This document shows positions 2,347 to 58,942 of a DNA stretch of 64,000 bases, one piece after another. Position 1 is the first letter of the stretch; each line of letters opens with the position of its first letter. The translations under genes were made by a program, and so were the position numbers. The notes beneath the pieces are model-generated. The model did not search any database and was not told the DNA's origin. It saw only the letters and a list, made by a program, of their open reading frames with translations. Origin of the DNA: Escherichia phage EJP2; the sequence record OQ411014.1; one strand, given 5' to 3'.

Positions 2347-3693
2347 ATGAGTAATATTACGCTTACGGAAAAGCAACAAAGTACTTTTGATGATTTTATC
2401 GAACGTGTGCATAACTACCCAGGACGCTCTATCTGTGTTCTTGTCGGATATGCTGGTACAGGTAAAACAACATTAGTATCTGAGATAGTACGGAACTTAC
2501 ATTCCGAGTACAACATTGCAGTAACATCACCAACGCATAAGGCGAACTCTGTTATTCGCAATATGCTAATCAATAACGTAGGTCTAAAGAAAGATGATGC
2601 ACAGGTTAGTACTATTCACTCTTTCTTAGGATTGAAGTTAGTATATGAAAAGAACCATCAAGTACTGAAGCATGACCCACAATCTAAGAATAGTAACTCC
2701 TATGTTGATATTCTGATTGTTGATGAATGTTCCATGATTTCCGAAGAGATGTACAATCACATCATGAACCAGATTCACCGTGTTCGACGTGCAATTCTTT
2801 TCATCGGTGACTCATGTCAGCTACCACCAGTTGAAGCTGAAGGTACTATTGGTGAAACCAAACTAAGTCCAACGTTTGATGTACCAGTGAAGTACGAACT
2901 ACAAGAAGTTCTGCGTCAAGCAATGGATAACCCAATCATCAAAGTTGCAACTGCAATTCGTGAATGTATTGGTACTAAGAACAACCCGATGGATATCCTC
3001 AATGCGATTGATGGTTATGATACAATCACACCAATCACTGACGAGGCTTTATTTTTGGACGTGTATAAAGCATATATTTGTGAGAACATTGGTTCAGCGA
3101 AGAAGATTTTTGATTTCGTACAAGAAAACAAAATCATTGCTTATACAAACTACAGAGTGAACTATGCAAACATGTTCATTCGGAGTGAAGTATTCCCTGA
3201 ACACAAAGAAACCGAGTTCGTCAAGGGTGAACCAATTGTCTTTGAATCCGTAACAGAAAACTGTTCATACACTGTACAGCAAATGATTCAATGTCCTGAA
3301 GTTCGTGAAGAACAATTCTTGGGTATTGATTGTTGGCAGTTCAAACTTCCAAACGGAAACTATATCTTAGGTGTAGGGCCATATAGTCGTTTAGCTCTAG
3401 AAGACCATCTTGATAAGTTAGTGAAGAAGATTGAAAAGAAAGAGATGAACCCACTAACACAGAAGCCATATGGTTGGCAAGATTATTACATTATCAAGAA
3501 CAAGATAAACATAATCAACTACCCGTATGCAACAACGGCACATAAGTCTCAAGGTAGCACGTTCAACAATATCTGGTTCGATACTGATTTTATTGATCGT
3601 ATTGCCAATAACGATACTAAATGTCGTATCATGTACACAGCGATGACTCGCCCACGTTATAGTGTTCTACTACGTAAGAACGCGAGTTGGTAA
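2347..3693 (+). CDS. dda: Dda-like SF1B DNA helicase
   Basis: Walker A GYAGTGKTT, Walker B ILIVDECSM, C-terminal TTAHKSQGSTF and AMTRPRYSV motifs; about 448 aa as for T4 Dda. Confidence 0.8.
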   Translation: MSNITLTEKQQSTFDDFIERVHNYPGRSICVLVGYAGTGKTTLVSEIVRNLHSEYNIAVTSPTHKANSVIRNMLINNVGLKKDDAQVSTIHSFLGLKLVYEKNHQVLKHDPQSKNSNSYVDILIVDECSMISEEMYNHIMNQIHRVRRAILFIGDSCQLPPVEAEGTIGETKLSPTFDVPVKYELQEVLRQAMDNPIIKVATAIRECIGTKNNPMDILNAIDGYDTITPITDEALFLDVYKAYICENIGSAKKIFDFVQENKIIAYTNYRVNYANMFIRSEVFPEHKETEFVKGEPIVFESVTENCSYTVQQMIQCPEVREEQFLGIDCWQFKLPNGNYILGVGPYSRLALEDHLDKLVKKIEKKEMNPLTQKPYGWQDYYIIKNKINIINYPYATTAHKSQGSTFNNIWFDTDFIDRIANNDTKCRIMYTAMTRPRYSVLLRKNASW

Positions 3694-10854: not shown

Positions 10855-13236
10855 ATGGCACAATTCATACCACGTTGGGATTTGAAGGCTGACACAAATA
10901 TTATTACTGAAGGTGGTACTACCTATGTGCGTATAAACATCAACAGGGATAAAATTAGTGATCCTTCATTATATGAGATTGAAGATAATCAATATTTAGA
11001 ATTAACATACCGCATTACTGGTACAGGTGAAACATTAGAAGAACGAGATTTTGAGTTATCAGTAGGTGAAGATTTAAATAATTTAAAGCCAATCAGTGAA
11101 ACCAGCACTTATCGTAATATGTTAGGAACACACACTGTTAAATTGGATACCAAATCATTCGAATTGGGAAATAATCTCTCAAAAACAGCTTATTACTTGA
11201 AACTTTATTGCGTAGTTGATGGTGTGTGGGATGGTCCTGAAACATTAGAATTCATTCTAGACACAATGAACATTGTCACTATTACCGAAGGACAAATTTC
11301 AAATGAAGAAGCGTCGGGTAGTATTGGTACAAATACGGCTAAGATTGCATACAATGACAGTACTGAAATATGGGTAACACCATCACTAACAGTACGTGAT
11401 GAAATGTACAGTATTTGTGAAATGCACTATGGTTCGAATAGTCGTGCTTTCGTACAAGCATTTGGTAGATGTAAACCTTACTCTGGTCCTATTGTAGAAG
11501 ATTCATCTAATCGTGTATTCTATCCTATGTATCAAATGGTAAATCTAGCACCGTCAGCAATACCCAGCACTAACAGGACTGGTCATGGTACAGTACTGAA
11601 TCCTGATCCTACTGCAACATTCCCACCTAGTGGTGAAGAAATGCCAGTGGTAATTCGGGATGAGTTAGGGAACAACATTGAAACTGGTTTGAGCTTAAAT
11701 GGTAATGGTCAATTACTCGGAACCTTTCTCTACGATTCTGATCCAATAGATGGTTACTTTAGAGTTAAAATTGTTGCACCAACTGCATATTATACAACTG
11801 AGCGTGATGCATTTTATATCGGTAAGCGTTTTAAAGCGTATCAAATGTGGGTATGTCCACAAGATACATCTTACATCAAAGGTTCACCAACACCAGGCCA
11901 CCTTTACCAATTAAAGAACACTGTAATTTATCCTTATGTTATCAAGGACTTCACGGAGAACTCAATTCACTATCCAATCTTTGAAGAAAATGACTGGATT
12001 GATTTGGGATATTATGATGTGAGTTTGGGTTCTGGTATTATTGGACAAGAAAGAACTTTCCGTATGATTATCAATGGTAACACCGGAGATGGCATTAGTT
12101 TTATCACTGATACTGATTTAGGTTCCATCCATGTGGGTGAGTATTTTGGTCACACGGTATATCCGTCGATTCAAGCCTCTGGTACATTAGTAACTTATAA
12201 GATTCTTGAATCATCAAGAGATGACATTACTAAGTACAACATTGATTTAACCGCAGATGGGATTATGGTCGGTACTGCTTATGCACAAAGTACTGATTTT
12301 AGTGCTAATGACGAAATACACTTAGAGTTTGATGTACAAGCAACAGACAAGAGTGGTGCTAGTGTAACTGCAACATTCAAGATTAGAATTACCCGTGGCT
12401 TCGGTCAGAACTTCCTAAGTGCATTTGTAAAACCACATATGCCATTTGAACGTAAGTGGTTTAAAATGATCAGTACTTCTAATTTTGTGAACCAAGAGTA
12501 CTATAGAACATCTGATGATCGTTATGGGTTACAGAAGTTTCCTAAGATGCTATTGAAAGAGAACTTTGTCAGTACTACTTATATGTACGAATCATTACAA
12601 GCAATGAAGAATACATTACGAGATAACTTAGTGAAGCCTGATACTGGAGCACCAGTACCGACAGGGACGTTTGGTTTTAGTTTAGGTAACTATAAAATTC
12701 GTTCAGCACTTGACAGTTTAGGCAACGTACTGTATGATGTACTATATCGTGAAATCCATCCTAAAGGTACTAGTGTTCCTATCTCTATGGAACCGTTGAA
12801 GTACACTACTCAAGACAATGGATTCTTGGCTGAGTTCTTTGGATTGCGTGAGAACATTGTCAGTACTGTAGGTGAAGACACCACGAACTTGCTATCTGAC
12901 CCGACTGATTTACAGAACCGTGGTTTGTATGTAGATGCAATTACTGGAATCTCGAAGGAAATGTTAGACACAGTTCCACGATACATGAACCATCCATATA
13001 CTGGTGATGGAGTTAAGGCTGGATTTTTGCCTGTAATTCCTGTAGCATACTTTAAGCCAGGTCAAGCTGAAGCATTCTTTAACACACTAATCCGTTCCAA
13101 TGAGTATCAGGAATTGGTGAATGAAGAGTTTGAGATTACATACGTTGAGTTCCAATACTTCTTTTTGCAGTACGCTAAATACGTTCAAGAGAACTATACT
13201 GTACAAATTAAAGAACAAAGTTTATTGGGAGGGTAA
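10855..13236 (+). CDS. large hypothetical protein (793 aa)
   Basis: long uninterrupted ORF; start moved to ATG 10855 with GGAG RBS; no motif recognised. Confidence 0.6.
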   Translation: MAQFIPRWDLKADTNIITEGGTTYVRININRDKISDPSLYEIEDNQYLELTYRITGTGETLEERDFELSVGEDLNNLKPISETSTYRNMLGTHTVKLDTKSFELGNNLSKTAYYLKLYCVVDGVWDGPETLEFILDTMNIVTITEGQISNEEASGSIGTNTAKIAYNDSTEIWVTPSLTVRDEMYSICEMHYGSNSRAFVQAFGRCKPYSGPIVEDSSNRVFYPMYQMVNLAPSAIPSTNRTGHGTVLNPDPTATFPPSGEEMPVVIRDELGNNIETGLSLNGNGQLLGTFLYDSDPIDGYFRVKIVAPTAYYTTERDAFYIGKRFKAYQMWVCPQDTSYIKGSPTPGHLYQLKNTVIYPYVIKDFTENSIHYPIFEENDWIDLGYYDVSLGSGIIGQERTFRMIINGNTGDGISFITDTDLGSIHVGEYFGHTVYPSIQASGTLVTYKILESSRDDITKYNIDLTADGIMVGTAYAQSTDFSANDEIHLEFDVQATDKSGASVTATFKIRITRGFGQNFLSAFVKPHMPFERKWFKMISTSNFVNQEYYRTSDDRYGLQKFPKMLLKENFVSTTYMYESLQAMKNTLRDNLVKPDTGAPVPTGTFGFSLGNYKIRSALDSLGNVLYDVLYREIHPKGTSVPISMEPLKYTTQDNGFLAEFFGLRENIVSTVGEDTTNLLSDPTDLQNRGLYVDAITGISKEMLDTVPRYMNHPYTGDGVKAGFLPVIPVAYFKPGQAEAFFNTLIRSNEYQELVNEEFEITYVEFQYFFLQYAKYVQENYTVQIKEQSLLGG

Positions 13237-32855: not shown

Positions 32856-33362
32856 ATGCAAATGACTTACGAAGATACAATGACTCATCTCAGTACTATT
32901 GATATTGAAAAGTTCACTCTAGAAGTCACTACTGGCGACCGCAACAAGAAGATGTGGTACAGTGAATATGAAAATCAAGATGACCTGTATGTTGTGGTTT
33001 CTGATAACAGTTCTTGGGGATTGGTATCAATCACAGTATTCACACCAAATGCTGACAGGACAGTTTTGCATCGCTTCAACCGTTCTATCCATCCTAAGCA
33101 CGAACTGGACGTGATGAAGATTGAATCAATTATGTTCGACTTTGGTGGAAATCGAGATGATAAAGCGGACATTCCAGCAGTGTGCATTCAAAACCTAAGT
33201 ACACTGAAGTCCGAGTCTGATTTCTTCAGTTATATCCTAATGAACAACATCAATGATATCACACATCAGAATATCGTTGACTTCATTGAATTCACTGATA
33301 AACTGTACAGTAAATGGGTAGAACAGTTCGGTGAACCATCTCTAGGAGACGAAGATGAGTGA
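32856..33362 (+). CDS. hypothetical protein
   Basis: start moved to ATG 32856 with AAAAGG RBS. Confidence 0.55.
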   Translation: MQMTYEDTMTHLSTIDIEKFTLEVTTGDRNKKMWYSEYENQDDLYVVVSDNSSWGLVSITVFTPNADRTVLHRFNRSIHPKHELDVMKIESIMFDFGGNRDDKADIPAVCIQNLSTLKSESDFFSYILMNNINDITHQNIVDFIEFTDKLYSKWVEQFGEPSLGDEDE

Positions 33363-33753
33363 AATTCAATCCAGATGTTATATAGTACTGAACAAAGAAC
33401 TCCAGATGCCTGTCGGTAAAGCTGCTGTACAGGTTGGTCATGCGATGGATCAGGTTTGGGGAGCTTTCTGTAATATGACTTCACAACCTACCATGTCTTT
33501 GTTGGGTAACCTGAAGTACATGGAAGACTTTTCCAAATGGAAAGATGAAGGCCGTAAGAAAGTAACACTAGGTGCTAAGAACGACGCTGAAGTTCAGAAA
33601 TATAAAGACAAACTCCTTGATGCGGGTTATACTGTGTTTGATATCGTTGACTACGGAATCAATTTCTTTGATGGTGTAACCAGGACTGGTATTGTAGTCT
33701 TTCCAGTACTGAATGCTATCCCTGAACTAAAACGTTTACAGGTATTCAAATGA
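33355..33753 (+). CDS. peptidyl-tRNA hydrolase, PTH2 family-like
   Basis: VGKAAVQVGHA and C-terminal GVTRTGIVVFPV parallel the PTH2 GKGKVAAQCSHA ... T..GIGP pattern. Confidence 0.65.
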   Translation: MSEIQSRCYIVLNKELQMPVGKAAVQVGHAMDQVWGAFCNMTSQPTMSLLGNLKYMEDFSKWKDEGRKKVTLGAKNDAEVQKYKDKLLDAGYTVFDIVDYGINFFDGVTRTGIVVFPVLNAIPELKRLQVFK

Positions 33754-35454: not shown

Positions 35455-35973
35455 GTGATGATGATTTCATGGATGAACGCTATGGTGATAAGGATGAGTA
35501 GATTCCTTACACTAGCTGATGTAATCAAGGAGGCTAATGATTATCTTGACAGTAAACCAGTGTTCAATGATAATGCAAAGGATACAAGAACATCTTTCGT
35601 CCCGAATTTGATTAACACTGCGTACGCTAATATTATTGACGTATTCGTGTGTCCACGCTATGCTATTTTCAAATTCCGTGATGTTGAGAATCTCGTGGAG
35701 TATCAACTATCAGTTCTTCCGTGGCGTAGTGGATTTTCGTTTATGTCATGGGATGATAGTTATATTGATGACGGTGAAGACATGCGGCATCTTTCAATGG
35801 GGTTTATTACATCAGAAGAACAGTTCTTCCAAGAATCGTTGAAACGTGATTTGTCATGGGTAGAATTGGTTGACGTTATCAATGCCAAGAAACTTCATGA
35901 CCGCATCTTTGAGTACTATGGTATTACACCATGTGATGATGAGCAGGACCAACTAGGTGACGTATACAAATGA
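35455..35973 (+). CDS. hypothetical protein, paralog family A (C-terminal SEEQFFQESL)
   Basis: family motif near C-terminus; true start may be ATG 35494. Confidence 0.55.
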   Translation: MMMISWMNAMVIRMSRFLTLADVIKEANDYLDSKPVFNDNAKDTRTSFVPNLINTAYANIIDVFVCPRYAIFKFRDVENLVEYQLSVLPWRSGFSFMSWDDSYIDDGEDMRHLSMGFITSEEQFFQESLKRDLSWVELVDVINAKKLHDRIFEYYGITPCDDEQDQLGDVYK

Positions 35974-36760: not shown

Positions 36761-37618
36761 ATGCAACCAATAACAGTACTTAGTCTGTTCAATGGAATGT
36801 CAGGCGGGATGCTTGCTTTAAACGAAGCACAAATACCCGTACATAAGTACTATTCATCTGAGATAGATAAGTTCGCAAACGCTGAGTCCCAAGCGAATTT
36901 CCCTGATATAGTCCAGTTGGGTGATGTTACCAAGTGGAAGGAATGGGATATTGAATGGGACAAAATAGATCTACTCATGGGTGGATTTCCATGCCAGGCA
37001 TGGTCTGTGGCTGGTAAACAGGGTGGAACGAACGATCCACGTGGAATGCTATTCCATACTATGGTTGATATCTATCATCATATTAAGGCGTTGAATCCGA
37101 ACTTGAAAGTACTGTTCGAGAACGTCAAGATGAAAGAAGACTTCAAGCAATACATTGATGGTATCTTAGGAATGACACCTAAGATGATCAACTCTCAAAA
37201 CTACACTGCTCACTATCGCCAGCGATATTACTGGTACTCATCTGATAAGTACTTTATCCCGCCTCCTATCATGTCTTCCCCTTCACTGCAATCAATTCTT
37301 GATAGTGATTACACTGATAGAGAGAAATCGTACTGTATAGATGCGAACTATTGGAAGGGTGGAGATCCTAACCAGTACTTCAACAAGTCCAGGCGGCAGA
37401 TGGTGTTCATGGACCCTGATATTGATAGAGAGTACCTTATTGAAAAGGGTATAAACAAGATTGACTATCGTAAGCTAAGTGTAGTAGAATGTTGTCGTTG
37501 TCAGGGAGTGCCGGATGATTACTTTAAAGTGTCCAGCAATACCCAAGCGTACAAGATGTTAGGTAACGGGTGGACTATCCCAGTCATCGCTCACTTATTA
37601 CGTGATATATTCTTTTGA
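36761..37618 (+). CDS. DNA (cytosine-5)-methyltransferase, orphan
   Basis: motif I LFNGMSGG, motif IV GFPCQAWSVAG, motif VI ENV; no adjacent restriction endonuclease candidate. Confidence 0.85.
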   Translation: MQPITVLSLFNGMSGGMLALNEAQIPVHKYYSSEIDKFANAESQANFPDIVQLGDVTKWKEWDIEWDKIDLLMGGFPCQAWSVAGKQGGTNDPRGMLFHTMVDIYHHIKALNPNLKVLFENVKMKEDFKQYIDGILGMTPKMINSQNYTAHYRQRYYWYSSDKYFIPPPIMSSPSLQSILDSDYTDREKSYCIDANYWKGGDPNQYFNKSRRQMVFMDPDIDREYLIEKGINKIDYRKLSVVECCRCQGVPDDYFKVSSNTQAYKMLGNGWTIPVIAHLLRDIFF

Positions 37619-40485: not shown

Positions 40486-40576
<91 letters not shown>

Positions 40577-40779: not shown

Positions 40780-41286
40780 ATGAACTCCAGAATCTATAAA
40801 GAACTAACTAATATAATGTATGAATTTATGGATTTTGAAGTCCAGCTTGGTGTCATATGGGGTCACACCCAACCCCGTGCCACAGATTTGTTTGAAAACT
40901 GTGGCTATTTTGTTTCTGATTGGTCATGGTATGATGGTCACATTGTATCATTACTTTCTAAACAGTACCCAAATATTGAAATTGACTACGCTGCTTGTGC
41001 TGATTCTTATACATTTAGCAGTACTGAATTTCCTGGTTTGGCAATATGTATAGAAGAAGTTCCTAAGATAAGGACAGAGCCATCAGATCATATCTTTAAT
41101 AGAGTTCCAATTTATAAGGTACTTGAAAATAGGTCAGAAGAAGTACGTATTACTAATCCAACTCCAGAGTTCAGTGAGTTCGTACAAGAATTATGTCAGT
41201 GGGTGATGACATTTGACAAGTCAGAAGAACTTGATTATACTGTCAGTATATATGTACAAGAAAACATTGAGGTCACTGAACTATGA
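40780..41286 (+). CDS. hypothetical protein
   Basis: 168-aa ORF. Confidence 0.55.
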   Translation: MNSRIYKELTNIMYEFMDFEVQLGVIWGHTQPRATDLFENCGYFVSDWSWYDGHIVSLLSKQYPNIEIDYAACADSYTFSSTEFPGLAICIEEVPKIRTEPSDHIFNRVPIYKVLENRSEEVRITNPTPEFSEFVQELCQWVMTFDKSEELDYTVSIYVQENIEVTEL

Positions 41287-41720
41287 TCAATTATGAAGCA
41301 GTACTGAAATCATTTATACACTGGTTGAACGACGATATCGTATACAAAACCATTGTGCGTACTAGAAATGATGAATACATTCCTATTCAGTATTTGGATA
41401 AGAATGAAGATATCTTCTTAGATAATGAAAACCTACATTACAGTTATCAACACTGGGAATTGAACACAACTACCCAAGCTGAAAGCCTGACTTCGTACTT
41501 TGGTATTGATATAAATCGTGATGGTTCTATTGTTATATTATATAATCCATCAGGAAGTGTACGTGATAAAACTCCACCTGCACGATTTAATATTAGTACT
41601 ACAGAAGAGGAATTATTCCAACTTAGTACTATCCAAGAGGATTATGACGTAACGATGGAAGTACTGAAAGAGTTTGCTAAACTGCACGAGAAATATTTTG
41701 GGAACCTAGACGATGTGTAA
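41283..41720 (+). CDS. hypothetical protein, paralog family A (TEEELFQLST)
   Basis: family motif near C-terminus. Confidence 0.55.
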   Translation: MINYEAVLKSFIHWLNDDIVYKTIVRTRNDEYIPIQYLDKNEDIFLDNENLHYSYQHWELNTTTQAESLTSYFGIDINRDGSIVILYNPSGSVRDKTPPARFNISTTEEELFQLSTIQEDYDVTMEVLKEFAKLHEKYFGNLDDV

Positions 41721-42159
41721 TAGATATAACATAAAGATGATCCAACGTGGATTTGATGTGTTTAAAAATATCATTGCAGCTTATAGGTTCTTGATGGAAG
41801 TTGATAATCTTTCTGAACTTGACTTATGTAATGATTTCTGTATAATTGATGATGCTGGTAATCGCAATACTGCATCAGCCACTATAGACGATGATAGAAT
41901 AATTTTCTCATTTGACGCTGCTGGTGTTATAGTTGATAACAATGAACTGATTTACACGGAATGTCTATATGATGATTCTGGACATAAAATCAAGTTCATC
42001 GTGAAGAATCCGAAATTCATTGTAAATGAAGAAACATTCTTCCAAGCGAGTATGTTGTATGATTTGTCTGATGTGAAAAGTTACGAATGGTTTGTAACTA
42101 TTATGCAAACATATGATTTCGTTATGGATTTCATGAAAATGGATTTTGAACAATACTAG
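41713..42159 (+). CDS. hypothetical protein, paralog family A (NEETFFQASM); tandem duplicate of next gene
   Basis: shares FIVNEETFFQAS..DLS.V..YEW.V.IMQ with 42168..42572. Confidence 0.6.
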   Translation: MCNRYNIKMIQRGFDVFKNIIAAYRFLMEVDNLSELDLCNDFCIIDDAGNRNTASATIDDDRIIFSFDAAGVIVDNNELIYTECLYDDSGHKIKFIVKNPKFIVNEETFFQASMLYDLSDVKSYEWFVTIMQTYDFVMDFMKMDFEQY

Positions 42160-42167
42160 GACTTAAA

Positions 42168-42572
42168 ATGATTGATCTTCAGAAACTGCTAATGGTTCAG
42201 TATGGTTTTGATGTGTTGTCGAGTAGTGATTTATCGAACGTGAATTTGAAAGATTTTGAATTCATTATCAGAGATGCAAACAATAACAGTACTGATGCTT
42301 ATGCGTCAATTCATAACGAAAGCGTTGATTTCACATTCAATGATTGTTCTGTGTATGTTGATGCTACAGAAATCGAAATCGTTTACCGTGTATATAGTGA
42401 AAACTACGCGGACGATATCGAATATATCCTTTGTATTGAAAATCCAACTTATATAGTGAATGAAGAAACTTTCTTCCAGGCTAGTACACTTCAAGATTTA
42501 TCAGAAGTTCCTGGGTATGAGTGGATTGTTTCTATTATGCAAATGTACAAAAATATTATTACTAAGGTATAA
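42168..42572 (+). CDS. hypothetical protein, paralog family A (NEETFFQAST); tandem duplicate
   Basis: near-identical C-terminal 40 aa to previous gene. Confidence 0.6.
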   Translation: MIDLQKLLMVQYGFDVLSSSDLSNVNLKDFEFIIRDANNNSTDAYASIHNESVDFTFNDCSVYVDATEIEIVYRVYSENYADDIEYILCIENPTYIVNEETFFQASTLQDLSEVPGYEWIVSIMQMYKNIITKV

Positions 42573-42573
42573 T

Positions 42574-43092
42574 ATGAAAGAGCTTATTGAACGTGTAGAT
42601 TTCTTTGAACTGATTGCATTGGAATTTGATCCAGAATGTACTGATATTCTTTCAGATGTACCAATCTTCCCTATTGAAAACGATGATGGTACTTCATCGT
42701 ACTTAGAAGATTACGAAGATTATTTGCGTAGCTTCTGTCCAACATCAAACGATAAAGTGCATCTCTTTACTGAAATTATTCATGTACAATACAATACAAA
42801 TAATAAAGAAATTGTATTATGTGCAATGGATACATTCAACAGTACTGAAGCTGGTATTGCACGTGAGTATGCTAAACTATATCTCATTGATACAGGTGAG
42901 TATTGTAAACTTACCATCAAGGAAAATTCATTTATATTCAATAACAAAGAATATAAGCTAGGTACTACTGAAGAAGAGAACTTCCAGATTTCATGTACTG
43001 ACATGGGTTACTTCAATAATGTAGTAAATGAAGTAAAGAAATTTATTCTTCAAGATATTGACAAGAATGGATTACCTGAGTATAATAAATAA
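42574..43092 (+). CDS. hypothetical protein, paralog family A (TEEENFQISC)
   Basis: start moved to ATG 42574 (track ORF begins 42460). Confidence 0.55.
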   Translation: MKELIERVDFFELIALEFDPECTDILSDVPIFPIENDDGTSSYLEDYEDYLRSFCPTSNDKVHLFTEIIHVQYNTNNKEIVLCAMDTFNSTEAGIAREYAKLYLIDTGEYCKLTIKENSFIFNNKEYKLGTTEEENFQISCTDMGYFNNVVNEVKKFILQDIDKNGLPEYNK

Positions 43093-43101
43093 CAGAATTA
43101 C

Positions 43102-43191
43102 AGAAGGTTGGCAGAGCGGCTAAATGCACTCGCCTACTAAGCGAGCACTCGCTCCGGCGAGTCGAGGGTTCGAATCCCCCACCTTCTGCCA
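43102..43191 (+). tRNA. type II tRNA with apparent ACU anticodon (Ser-like, unusual)
   Basis: acceptor AGAAGGT/ACCTTCT, anticodon stem CTCGC/GCGAG with loop CTACTAA, long variable arm, T-loop GGTTCGAATCC, encoded CCA; anticodon read by hand. Confidence 0.6.
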
Positions 43192-43204
43192 TATTAGGAT
43201 TTCA

Positions 43205-43594
43205 ATGATGACAATGCATGTGTACGATGAGTATGAAGAACGTATAAAACATGAAATCCAAAGTTATTTGGATGGTGTCAATAAAAAATTGAAATACAGT
43301 TCGGGTAAACGTTTTCAATCATTCACCCTAGAATACATGGATTGTGATGATTATAAACAACGCAGAATAACTATAAAAATTGCAGTTGATCCGAAGTTTA
43401 GTTGTGTGCATTCATCTTTACAGATAGATTCCACTTTTGGTGAAGATGAAGATCAATACTGGAGTGGTTTTTCCTATATACCAGAAAGTGAAGAAAAGCA
43501 CTTTCAAGAAACGTTACTCAATAAACAGATTTTAAGCTGGGATTTATTGCAGTACTTGATTGTTTTCTTCACTAAAATGCAAAATAAAGATTGA
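43205..43594 (+). CDS. hypothetical protein, paralog family A (SEEKHFQETL)
   Basis: start moved to ATG 43205 to clear the tRNA (track ORF begins 43124). Confidence 0.55.
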   Translation: MMTMHVYDEYEERIKHEIQSYLDGVNKKLKYSSGKRFQSFTLEYMDCDDYKQRRITIKIAVDPKFSCVHSSLQIDSTFGEDEDQYWSGFSYIPESEEKHFQETLLNKQILSWDLLQYLIVFFTKMQNKD

Positions 43595-43641
43595 CTGTAC
43601 TGTAATGAACTAGTATTATATTACTTAGAGGATATAAAAAC

Positions 43642-44001
43642 ATGGCAGTTCAGGATTTTTCAAAATATGAAAAGTTTCTTAGAACATTTTTGAATTCCAA
43701 ATTAACATCTTACGATGCAGCACATAGTGAAGATAAACCAGCACGTCGCATTGTAAATGAAAATCAAGATTCATTTATTATTACTAATGATGAAATTATT
43801 TTTGAATCATTTGAAGATATAAAAAGACCTGCAAAACCAACTTTACAAGATATCGTAAATAGCTTAAATGCTAGATACATTACCTTTCAGTTGTGTAATG
43901 ATGAAGAAGATGAATTTCAGAAAAGTACAGTATATGAGAATATCTTTCCACATGAATTAAATTCTGTTATACTTGATATACTGAATAGTACTGAACAGTA
44001 G
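43642..44001 (+). CDS. hypothetical protein, family A-like (EEDEFQKST)
   Basis: degenerate family motif. Confidence 0.5.
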   Translation: MAVQDFSKYEKFLRTFLNSKLTSYDAAHSEDKPARRIVNENQDSFIITNDEIIFESFEDIKRPAKPTLQDIVNSLNARYITFQLCNDEEDEFQKSTVYENIFPHELNSVILDILNSTEQ

Positions 44002-44445: not shown

Positions 44446-44540
<95 letters not shown>

Positions 44541-47311: not shown

Positions 47312-47728
47312 ATGGAATACAACATTGTTAAAATGGTGAACTACGTATTAAAAAACAACACATGGTCACTCTATGATGTACAAATAGAAGATATTGGTGA
47401 AGTTAGAGTATTTTGTTATGATCCAGATTTGTATGAAACCACAGATTTGAGTAAATGTTTTAATATTTTTCTTGGTTATGAAATCAATAATCATTTTTAT
47501 TCATTTGATGTGTATTTTGAACGAGTTATAATCAGAATTACTAATGTAGATAATGATTATTTTGACACTGAAATTATATTGAATTTTAACGATATTGATA
47601 CAGAAGAAAAATTCTTCCAGTACTCTTTAGTTAACGACACAATGGGATTGTCATTTGAGGACATTGAAGCTATACTTAAAGTTCAAAGTTCAATTTCAGA
47701 AGAGGTTCTAAATCCGTTAAATGTCTAG
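47312..47728 (+). CDS. hypothetical protein, paralog family A (TEEKFFQYSL)
   Basis: family motif near C-terminus. Confidence 0.55.
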   Translation: MEYNIVKMVNYVLKNNTWSLYDVQIEDIGEVRVFCYDPDLYETTDLSKCFNIFLGYEINNHFYSFDVYFERVIIRITNVDNDYFDTEIILNFNDIDTEEKFFQYSLVNDTMGLSFEDIEAILKVQSSISEEVLNPLNV

Positions 47729-48658: not shown

Positions 48659-48877
48659 GAAATTCAATACAAAACGGTTTATCAGTCCAGAAGTAAAAGC
48701 TCGTCTAATCGAGATGTTGAAAAAGAAATAATCAATAATACCTATCATCTAATATCAGTACTACCAGGCGAGGTTCTACGTTTGCAGTACTGACAGGATA
48801 CCTCGTTCGCCAGTGGTGGGTTCGGGGGATGTACGTAAAGTCGTACTGGGTATGCCAAATGTGATATGGAGAGAAAC

Positions 48878-49357
48878 ATGGAATTAAGTTTAAAGCACCA
48901 GAATGCTCTGAAACGAGTAATGGACCATATCAAAACGAACAAGTCACTTTCTATGAGTACGTATGATTCCTTCCACAAAACAACACAAGTGTGGGCGAGT
49001 GATTCATTCGATAACTCGAAAGATAAAAGTAATTCTTGTATAGAAGATACTGATGGTGTAATATATGTAAATCTAAAGTACTCAAATTTTGAAGAAATGT
49101 ATATGTATATCGACATCAGAGATATGGTGGTTAACATTTCATATGCATATGATGAAGACATTGCTGCATTGAAACATGAATCGGAGATAACAAATGATTA
49201 TTGGTATGCTGATTTCACTGTTCCGATATTTGAAAAAGAAGAAGAATATTTCCAGTACTTAACTACTGAAGAGAATCCTTTGTCTATAGAAGAAAACAAA
49301 ATGTTTATTGATTTTGTTGTTGAATTTTATAAAAGAAAAGAAAAACATATTCGTTGA
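48878..49357 (+). CDS. hypothetical protein, paralog family A (KEEEYFQYLT)
   Basis: start moved to ATG 48878 with GGAGAG RBS. Confidence 0.55.
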   Translation: MELSLKHQNALKRVMDHIKTNKSLSMSTYDSFHKTTQVWASDSFDNSKDKSNSCIEDTDGVIYVNLKYSNFEEMYMYIDIRDMVVNISYAYDEDIAALKHESEITNDYWYADFTVPIFEKEEEYFQYLTTEENPLSIEENKMFIDFVVEFYKRKEKHIR

Positions 49358-49382
49358 CACATGACCTGTACTTGAGTATAAT
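49354..49382 (+). promoter_or_regulatory. consensus sigma70 promoter (TTGACA-17-TATAAT)
   Basis: TTGACA 49354-49359, TATAAT 49377-49382. Confidence 0.55.
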
Positions 49383-49417
49383 CAGTACAGGTTTTTTTAT
49401 TGTCAAAAGGTGAAGAC

Positions 49418-49885
49418 ATGACAGCCCAAACTATAGCAAAGCACTTTCAACAGGAATGTGAAACGTTCAGGACATTTAAAATTGACAACTGGTTAGGTCC
49501 AGATGGTAAGCCAACTGTAGATTTCAATGCTAGTGGTGAAGGAATTACTAATTACTACGCCCCGAACTATAAACCATCTGTAGGTTTAGCACAGACTATA
49601 TACATCGGCAATTATGCAACATCTATTGGTGTAGTTGGTGGTGATGGAACAGGTGATATTGAACTGGATTTGAGTTATTATTACGAAACCAGTACTCTGA
49701 AGATTCACTACAGTTATACTAACGCCAATGACTACGGTCAGATTGAAACGAAAATTAGCGGTACTGAAGAAGATTACTTTCAACAAAGTACAATTCATGA
49801 GAAGCTATTCTCGCTGGAGTTCGAAAAAGAAATGTACGAATTCTTTCAAGAAGTCAAGAAACATTTCGCATATAAATCTAGGTGA
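49418..49885 (+). CDS. hypothetical protein, paralog family A (TEEDYFQQST)
   Basis: start moved to ATG 49418 with AAAGGTGAAG RBS. Confidence 0.55.
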   Translation: MTAQTIAKHFQQECETFRTFKIDNWLGPDGKPTVDFNASGEGITNYYAPNYKPSVGLAQTIYIGNYATSIGVVGGDGTGDIELDLSYYYETSTLKIHYSYTNANDYGQIETKISGTEEDYFQQSTIHEKLFSLEFEKEMYEFFQEVKKHFAYKSR

Positions 49886-49888
49886 CAT

Positions 49889-50302
49889 ATGAGTAAGTTA
49901 TTTGAAGAGTTATTAGACATGCTCGTTCAAGGGGCATATGATTTGGGTACGTTCTCTGCTGAAGAACATGCACGGAAATTCCGCTACGGCCTGACTAGTT
50001 CTTCTATGATCGTCGGGACGTACGCAGTGTTTGCACCTGATTCGTCCTTTAGTCTCAAAAGTGAAGCATATACTATTGACAAAGACGTATTGAAACTACC
50101 TAACGGTACTAAGATTCCACACAAAGAGTGCCAAACAGAAGAACAGTACTTCCAATTTAGTTTATTAGAGAATACTCTGGACCTGGAGTACCATGAATAC
50201 GCGTACGTTGTGAAGAAATATAAAACTCTACAATTCACTGCGAATCGCAAGATTTATCATTACAACAATTTATCACATAACAGTTTAGTTGCGAGGTACT
50301 AA
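49889..50302 (+). CDS. hypothetical protein, paralog family A (TEEQYFQFSL)
   Basis: family motif. Confidence 0.55.
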   Translation: MSKLFEELLDMLVQGAYDLGTFSAEEHARKFRYGLTSSSMIVGTYAVFAPDSSFSLKSEAYTIDKDVLKLPNGTKIPHKECQTEEQYFQFSLLENTLDLEYHEYAYVVKKYKTLQFTANRKIYHYNNLSHNSLVARY

Positions 50303-55438: not shown

Positions 55439-55828
55439 ATGAAAGCTGAACTATATGATTTATTGTTACAATCATTGAAGACTGAATTTGTATTTGACTT
55501 CAAGAACCCAACTGGCTCAATTGTATTCACGAACAAGATCGTTTATGCCAAAGCTGAAGGCGGGGCATCTGTAATCTACGTACCGTATGAAGGTCAATCA
55601 TTTTATGTGTGTATCTATCCTGACACAACAGATTACGTTACAGTAATGTACATGTCAGGTGATGATTTTGAAGAAAAAGAGGGCAGTACTGAATCTTTTG
55701 GTACATTCAAAATGATCAGTACTGAAGAAGAGTTCTTCATGAAGAGTACTATCAACGATATGAATCATTCTTTTGAATTGATCAGTACTCTTCATGAACT
55801 CCAGAAAGAACTTGACCAGTATTTGTAA
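55439..55828 (+). CDS. hypothetical protein, paralog family A (TEEEFFMKST)
   Basis: start moved to ATG 55439 with AAGAGA RBS. Confidence 0.55.
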   Translation: MKAELYDLLLQSLKTEFVFDFKNPTGSIVFTNKIVYAKAEGGASVIYVPYEGQSFYVCIYPDTTDYVTVMYMSGDDFEEKEGSTESFGTFKMISTEEEFFMKSTINDMNHSFELISTLHELQKELDQYL

Positions 55829-55834
55829 GGACAG

Positions 55835-56170
55835 ATGATGTTAGAACTACTAGAAACAATCCTGTACGCAGCTAGAGCAGAACGATATGATAAACTCGAT
55901 GCACTAGCACCTAAAGTGTTTTATGGTCGAGAAGGTGATGCGATATTGTCCTTTACTATCATGACAGAAGAAAACTTTTCTATCATGATTAGGGCAACAC
56001 ACGTCATTGACTGTCGTTGTAAAAACTGGTCTGACGCAACATTGAAGTACGGTTACAAGGAAGATGAATTCTTCTTAGAATCACTCAAGCGTGAAATACA
56101 TTTTTCCTATGAAGAATATCTACTTGCACAAAAAATTTCAGAAGTTCTAAAAAGACTCGCATATAAATGA
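55835..56170 (+). CDS. hypothetical protein, paralog family A (KEDEFFLESL)
   Basis: family motif. Confidence 0.55.
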   Translation: MMLELLETILYAARAERYDKLDALAPKVFYGREGDAILSFTIMTEENFSIMIRATHVIDCRCKNWSDATLKYGYKEDEFFLESLKREIHFSYEEYLLAQKISEVLKRLAYK

Positions 56171-58540: not shown

Positions 58541-58942
58541 ATGCAAGAAGAAGATATTGTCGATATACTGAAGGGTGTAGTCAAAGAAATCAGAGATAAT
58601 GGTGAATGCAAACAATGTAGGTTCACCATCAATGATGGTAATGGTTCTGATGGCTCATTTCTTATGCAGTTTGAGAATATGACACTTACCATTTACCCGA
58701 CTTCAGTTATAACAAATCAGTTCGAAACAAATTCAGTGAATTACTTTCGGCGGCATCCAAACGATACAGAAGAACAGTACTTCGCTAGAATGCTAACAGG
58801 CACTGAGAGTATAATTTCTCCCAGTACTGAATTAGTACTACAAAGATTCTTTTTCGTTGTCATTACATTCATTCGTGATGGTCTATCCATGTTTCACGAT
58901 ACAGTCTGGACTGGCAATGCATACTACGATGACCAATTATAA
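58541..58942 (+). CDS. hypothetical protein, paralog family A (TEEQYFARML)
   Basis: family motif. Confidence 0.55.
   Translation: MQEEDIVDILKGVVKEIRDNGECKQCRFTINDGNGSDGSFLMQFENMTLTIYPTSVITNQFETNSVNYFRRHPNDTEEQYFARMLTGTESIISPSTELVLQRFFFVVITFIRDGLSMFHDTVWTGNAYYDDQL

Follow-up and report, generated by a model that had tools for sequence, protein, structure and literature searches.

A recurrent 15-bp inverted repeat in a jumbo phage paralog array is very probably a by-product of a conserved peptide motif

Introduction

The closest described setting for the genes analysed here is that of the RaK2-like jumbo phages, and in RaK2 itself nearly 10% of the gene products are paralogues of one another (PMC3622015). 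Our window, by which we mean the whole 64-kb stretch of DNA that was analysed, is from a jumbo phage of the RaK2/121Q/BF lineage and has the same tandem expansion of small genes without database matches. Neither the family nor the motif that we describe was defined in the RaK2 paper (PMC3622015), and the literature that we checked on RaK2-like jumbo phages holds no description of the unifying motif. Two of the family genes, 47312 and 35458, match phrog_17453 and phrog_30111, but PHROGs divides the family into many small groups.

Among known DNA elements, the repeat considered here, GAAGAA-N3-TTCTTC, recalls the heat-shock element (nGAAnnTTCn), which is eukaryotic, lies in promoters and is conserved as DNA. 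The two share a GAA...TTC inverted repeat, but the inner spacing of the heat-shock element is N2 where ours is N3, and its eukaryotic, promoter-borne and DNA-conserved character is absent here. The likeness is complete with palindromes built from reverse-complementary codons. The codons GAA (Glu) and TTC (Phe) are each other's exact reverse complement, so that the peptide E-E-x-F-F written in these codons must read GAAGAA-N3-TTCTTC, and a majority-codon E-E-x-F-F is automatically palindromic. At the protein level the nearest relative is the helix N-cap motif, in which an S, T, D or N residue is followed by acidic residues in the first helical turn. The family shares this arrangement, with T, S, D or N at position 0 in 104 of 116 members, E-E next, and both of the helices predicted for it starting there. 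Unlike the general N-cap motif, that of the family carries a specific Φ-F-Q-x-S extension, and the comparison is with predicted models of moderate confidence rather than with a solved structure.

The original prediction drew attention to the repeat in two adjacent genes of the window and weighed a nucleic-acid element embedded in these genes against a by-product of the peptide, leaning towards the latter. Our analysis supports that lean on different grounds. The string is real, but we conclude, with a probability of about 0.9, that it is an ordinary by-product of peptide coding and not a separate feature.

Results

The 793-aa virion protein of the window (10855-13236) is 70% identical to that of Erwinia phage Hallingskeid and 51-57% identical to its counterparts in Salmonella, Klebsiella, Serratia and other Erwinia phages, and the remaining matches, E. 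coli phages included, are below 60%. The protein of gene 47312 is 80-84% identical to its orthologues of the E. coli 121Q/PBECO4 type, against the <60% of the virion protein (Hallingskeid excepted). This contrast between sequence identities may point to mosaicism, to horizontal exchange or to unusually strong constraint on that paralog. Between about 31600 and 61900, near-identical phages (94-99.8% at the nucleotide level) are present in metagenome assemblies as loci L087-L094, an example being the 236,674-bp contig NODE_4 of ENA ERZ12343533; a megablast search of the GenBank phage collection gave no close relative.

The small genes of interest are interspersed with tRNA genes, of which the window carries six, with a PTH2-type peptidyl-tRNA hydrolase and a Dcm-type DNA cytosine methyltransferase (33355-33753 and 36761-37618), and with other small genes. 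The hydrolase and the methyltransferase are syntenic in Hallingskeid, 121Q, PBECO4, Munch and CBB. The ORF listed at 43124-43594 begins within a tRNA-Ser gene (43102-43191), and relatives call a 128-aa product; from these sequences its true start is probably the ATG at 43208.

HMM searches and alignments define an array of at least 21 divergent paralogs on the plus strand between 30332 and 58942. Its members, which include 41283-41720, 41713-42159, 42168-42572, 47312-47728 and 48866-50302, encode products of 100-175 aa. Pairwise identities within the window are 11-24%, with the exception of one adjacent pair at 44%, in which gene 42168-42572 is a tandem duplicate of gene 41713-42159. Iterated HMM searches over eight genome regions (the window, Hallingskeid, Turkey3, PBECO4, 121Q, Munch, a 345,809-bp RaK2-like contig and CBB) extended the family to about 130 members, and essentially all of them carry the motif [T/S/D/N]-E-E-x-Φ-F-Q-x-S-[T/L].

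The first Glu and the Phe at position 5 are invariant in the alignments of the window paralogs. Position 4 is far more permissive. Of 116 members, 36 have F there, 27 have Y, 25 L, 11 H and 7 V, and Tyr outnumbers Phe (22 to 15) in 56 independent cluster representatives. The peptide E-E-x-F-F, which alone is capable of encoding the palindrome, is present in only 23 of the 116 members (~20%). Position 0 is T in 63 members, S in 17, D in 16 and N in 8, and in an independent sample of 43 it is T in 32, S in 7, N in 3 and D in 1.

The family is narrowly distributed. When 1.84 billion representative proteins were searched exhaustively with a profile, only 56 family clusters were recovered, all of 87-176 aa, and of 80 loci anchored on the Dcm methyltransferase only the one on the 345,809-bp contig (L006) carries the family. 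Neither a megablast search with 41000-44000 nor a tblastn search with the 41713 protein found a match in the phage collection, and no relatives of the proteins of 42168 and 55439 were found in viral contigs. Pfam, NCBIfam and PDB hold no significant profile or fold match; a weak Pfam HSF_DNA-bind match (E=0.1, under the cut-off) was set aside as noise. Fold searches with models of the family returned only other uncharacterised members. The protein of gene 47312 matches phrog_17453 (E=1.5e-48) and that of gene 35458 matches phrog_30111 (E=5.8e-27), while other members give weak matches to several PHROGs of unknown function.

An exact search of the 64-kb window for GAAGAANNNTTCTTC found five copies, at 35815, 42028, 42462, 47603 and 55724, where 100 dinucleotide-preserving shuffles of the window gave an expectation of 0.00. 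All five are in frame and encode E-E-x-F-F in small plus-strand paralogs of the family, and every E-E-x-F-F site of the window (5 of 5) is an exact palindrome. The two repeats first reported are present exactly as described, namely GAAGAAACATTCTTC at 42028-42042 on the plus strand (codons E106-E107-T108-F109-F110 of gene 41713-42159) and GAAGAAACTTTCTTC at 42462-42476, plus strand (E-E-T-F-F of gene 42168-42572).

Four further genes had been named as carriers, under the positions 35455, 47312, 55439 and 55835, and the first three are indeed so. Their plus-strand copies are GAAGAACAGTTCTTC at 35815-35829 (E-E-Q-F-F, gene 35458-35973), GAAGAAAAATTCTTC at 47603-47617 (E98-E99-K100-F101-F102, gene 47312-47728) and GAAGAAGAGTTCTTC at 55724-55738 (E-E-E-F-F, gene 55439-55828). 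The fourth, gene 55835-56170, is not a carrier; its E-D-E-F-F codons, at 56060-56074 on the plus strand, read GAAGATGAATTCTTC and are one mismatch off.

Allowing one mismatch raised the count to nine (five exact and four with one mismatch), all of them in-frame E-[ED]-x-[FY]-[FL]. The other three near-palindromes, also on the plus strand, are GAAGAACAGTACTTC at 50138-50152 and again at 58769-58783 (E-E-Q-Y-F in the family genes 49889-50302 and 58541-58942) and GAAGAACAATTCTTG at 3307-3321, where the frame, derived from the start of ORF 2347-3693, gives E-E-Q-F-L. The last of these ORFs is not a member of the family, which indicates that the pattern tracks the peptide rather than the family. 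None of the nine exact or one-mismatch copies in the 64-kb window lies in intergenic DNA or in another frame, and the spacer codon differs by copy (CAG, ACA, ACT, AAA, GAG).

The codons themselves follow the local usage of the genome. Outside the motif, Glu before another Glu is encoded by GAA in 107 of 112 cases in the window (~96%) and in 93% of cases pooled, as against 71-76% in other contexts. The F-F pair of the motif is more varied across the family, being TTCTTC in 15 members, TTCTTT in 12, TTTTTC in 5 and TTTTTT in 4, and all four of these encodings are used for E-E-x-F-F in other genera. Codon use showed no significant difference between palindrome-capable members and the others; the counts of GAA against other codons were 20/0 and 71/10 at the first Glu (p=0.20) and 20/0 and 60/10 at the second (p=0.11), and those of TTC against other codons at the position 5 Phe were 13/7 and 43/47 (p=0.22). 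The GAA GAA arm is present in 23 of 23 capable members, compared with ~87% GAA per position in the non-capable ones, a trend in the direction of the palindrome that is not significant.

Codon context has marked effects in these genomes. GAG almost never precedes another Glu codon in the window, and the same bias is seen in five related phages. Serine codons in non-family genes are strongly context-dependent as well, with AGY in 83 of 95 cases before Thr and TCN in 55 of 70 before Leu. We had considered that the split between AGT and TCN at motif position 8 might mark two ancient subfamilies, and rejected this in favour of genome-wide codon-pair bias. Three of the tRNA genes are for serine, at 40487-40576 (UGA), 43102-43191 (ACU) and 44451-44540 (GCU), and the ACU anticodon is unusual.

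How far the palindromes exceed chance depends on the null. Against a naive genome-wide codon background, 13 of 20 capable members were palindromic where 3.6 were expected; we dropped this null because it takes no account of codon context and treats orthologues as independent, and replaced it with a context-aware one that collapses orthologues. The context-aware chance that an E-E-x-F-F site is an exact palindrome is 0.19-0.51 overall and 0.36-0.45 in the window. Recurrence above chance stands against random sequence, but the appropriate null is one that takes peptide and codon context as given.

With the window excluded and orthologues from E. coli phages collapsed, 5 of 12 units are palindromic where 3.44 are expected (p=0.24), in a sample that is small and drawn from partial genome regions. 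Once the window is added, 10 of 17 collapsed units are palindromic, where the null predicts 5.3 (p=0.015). Multiplying the expectations of the five window sites gives ~0.007, a nominally significant value in what is the post-hoc discovery set. The nominal excess is limited to the data that first revealed the pattern and is not replicated elsewhere.

Comparison across genomes separates the peptide from the repeat. The orthologues of gene 47312 read GAAGAAAAATTCTTC in PBECO4 and 121Q, but GAAGAAAAATTCTTT in Turkey3, where the two Phe codons are TTC TTT. Members of the TEESFFM group are palindromic in the E. coli phages, but that of the RaK2-like contig reads GAAGAATCATTTTTT (TTT TTT). Together, that contig and CBB have four E-E-x-F-F members, all of them non-palindromic. 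The best orthologues of gene 35458 in Munch and CBB have E-E-E-Y-F (GAA GAA GAA TAC TTT) and no palindrome; here the difference from the window is an amino-acid change, to Tyr at position 4. In related genomes, then, synonymous positions of the motif vary while the amino acids are kept, which is the pattern that the original prediction had named as the mark of pure protein-level constraint.

The argument first offered for peptide-level selection was faulty in its examples, since the "non-palindromic synonymous codons" that it quoted are not synonymous. In both, the amino acid at position 4 differs, GAG GAA TTA TTC of gene 41283 being E-E-L-F and GAA GAT TAC TTT of gene 49418 being E-D-Y-F, and these are amino-acid replacements. 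Synonymous non-palindromic versions of E-E-x-F-F are found only in the related genomes and nowhere in the window.

It had also been proposed that synonymous conservation at the motif be compared with that of other codons. We scored, in orthologue clusters that span genera, whether the same codon was used where the amino acid was the same; the pairs are phylogenetically non-independent, and we rely on the direction of the effect and not on p-values. The motif Phe codon is kept in 45 of 86 cross-genus pairs (0.52), which is less than the 116 of 158 (0.73) for other Phe codons in the same genes. For Glu codons the figures are 72 of 84 pairs (0.86) at the motif and 0.68 at other positions. High Glu retention extends to non-capable members, for example those with TEEEYF as GAA GAA GAA, and we attribute it to the general Glu-Glu codon-pair bias. 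The close relatives (L087-L094) keep every motif codon whether palindromic or not and so have no discriminating power. Covariation between the arms is unobservable with an invariant 5' arm, and C-to-T changes in the 3' arm give only G-U wobble pairs.

Two AlphaFold models, of different paralogs, agree on a fold in which a helix at the N-terminus is followed by a sheet of about six strands and then by two C-terminal helices. In the AF2 model of gene 41713, N105 is followed by a helix at 106-115 (local pLDDT ~80) that the motif residues open, and in that of gene 47312, T97 is followed by a helix at 98-107 (local pLDDT 87-91), again with the motif at the helix start. Both models thus predict that the motif opens the first C-terminal helix. 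An N-cap and first-turn role of this kind would give a structural reason for constraint on the peptide, and a motif placed at a helix start would account for the exchange of F, Y, L and H at position 4.

Of the alternatives, the one that survives best is an mRNA hairpin within the coding sequence, acting as a translational pause at the start of the C-terminal helix or as a site for an RNase or a regulator, and weakly selected on top of the peptide. All five window sites are palindromic where ~0.4 is expected per site, and any GAR GAR nnn UUY UUY still pairs through G-U wobble. The isolated hairpin is worth only -2.8 kcal/mol as RNA (-2.5 with DNA parameters), and its synonymous TTT variants give -1.2, -0.2 and +1.4 kcal/mol. 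Mean stem pairing probability in ±45 nt of mRNA is high at 42462 (0.76) and 47603 (0.90), but is 0.27 at 35815, 0.10 at 42028 and 0.02 at 55724, and the stem is part of the MFE fold at two of the five sites. A gathering-threshold Rfam scan of the window returned only the six tRNAs and no family at the palindrome sites. Some 80% of the family is unable to form the stem, and orthologues have lost it both through synonymous changes and through replacement of F by Y. Outside the window no excess is seen, and the motif Phe codons are less conserved than their background. We consider such a hairpin very unlikely.

Discussion

Our comparisons argue that the 15-bp repeat is what the peptide looks like in DNA when it is written in the codons that this phage favours. 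In the account that we prefer, selection acts on the peptide [T/S/D/N]-E-E-x-Φ-F-Q-x-S-[T/L], as the comparative evidence shows, with a structural role suggested by the models. The predicted layout is an N-cap residue, two acidic residues in the first turn and then two hydrophobic or aromatic residues. In members that happen to have Phe at position 4, use of the codons favoured in the local context would make the DNA read GAAGAA-N3-TTCTTC. The GAA GAA arm would come from the genome-wide codon-pair bias that makes Glu before Glu GAA in 96% of cases, and the TTC TTC arm probably from avoidance of T runs together with a moderate preference for TTC before C or A.

The nucleic-acid element that was offered as the alternative finds no support, the repeat being lost in orthologues and showing no excess outside the window. 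There is a narrower form of the hairpin idea, in which the exact repeat is under weak selection only in the window phage and its 94-99.8% identical relatives, where a hairpin would modulate elongation. If true, the hairpin would act where the beta-sheet gives way to the C-terminal helices, the constraint would be one that other genera do not share, and the five perfect sites out of five (nominal P ~0.007) would be explained. We give this little credence, about as little as the hairpin in general.

Still less probable is a double-stranded DNA site within the genes, whether a cruciform or a site bound by a dimeric protein. The form would suit such a site, since the two 6-bp arms match perfectly across a 3-bp spacer and the repeat is found five times in 20 kb where shuffling gives 0. 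But every exact or near copy is in a single coding frame and none is intergenic or in a promoter region, the spacer is whatever codon x requires, and the repeat is not conserved in orthologues. The A+T-rich 6-bp arms, moreover, yield only -2.5 kcal/mol with DNA parameters.

Equally improbable is a role for the motif DNA as microhomology, through which tandem paralogs would recombine or undergo gene conversion, with the palindromes copied and not independently derived. In favour of this, the arrays are tandem with a shared conserved stretch of ~27 nt, and one pair of adjacent duplicates supplies two of the five palindromic genes. Against it, pairwise identity among the paralogs is only 11-24%, the sequence around the motif is not similar at the nucleotide level, and each copy has its own loop codon and its own codons for the flanking Q and S. 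The idea, moreover, concerns homology generally and gives the inverted-repeat symmetry no role.

Coding of the conserved peptide is, in our judgement, the explanation to retain, and it carries a lesson for sequence scans. A shuffle null is unsuited to palindromes at peptide motifs with reverse-complementary codons. Palindromes at E/F, K/F (AAA/TTT), D/I or D/V (GAT/ATC, GAC/GTC) and comparable conserved motifs need a null that takes account of both the peptide and its codon context.

In summary, a false lead can very probably be closed, the striking 15-bp repeat being the DNA shadow of a conserved peptide, sharpened by codon-context bias. The biology of note lies in the motif-bearing paralog family, which is uncharacterised and narrowly distributed.
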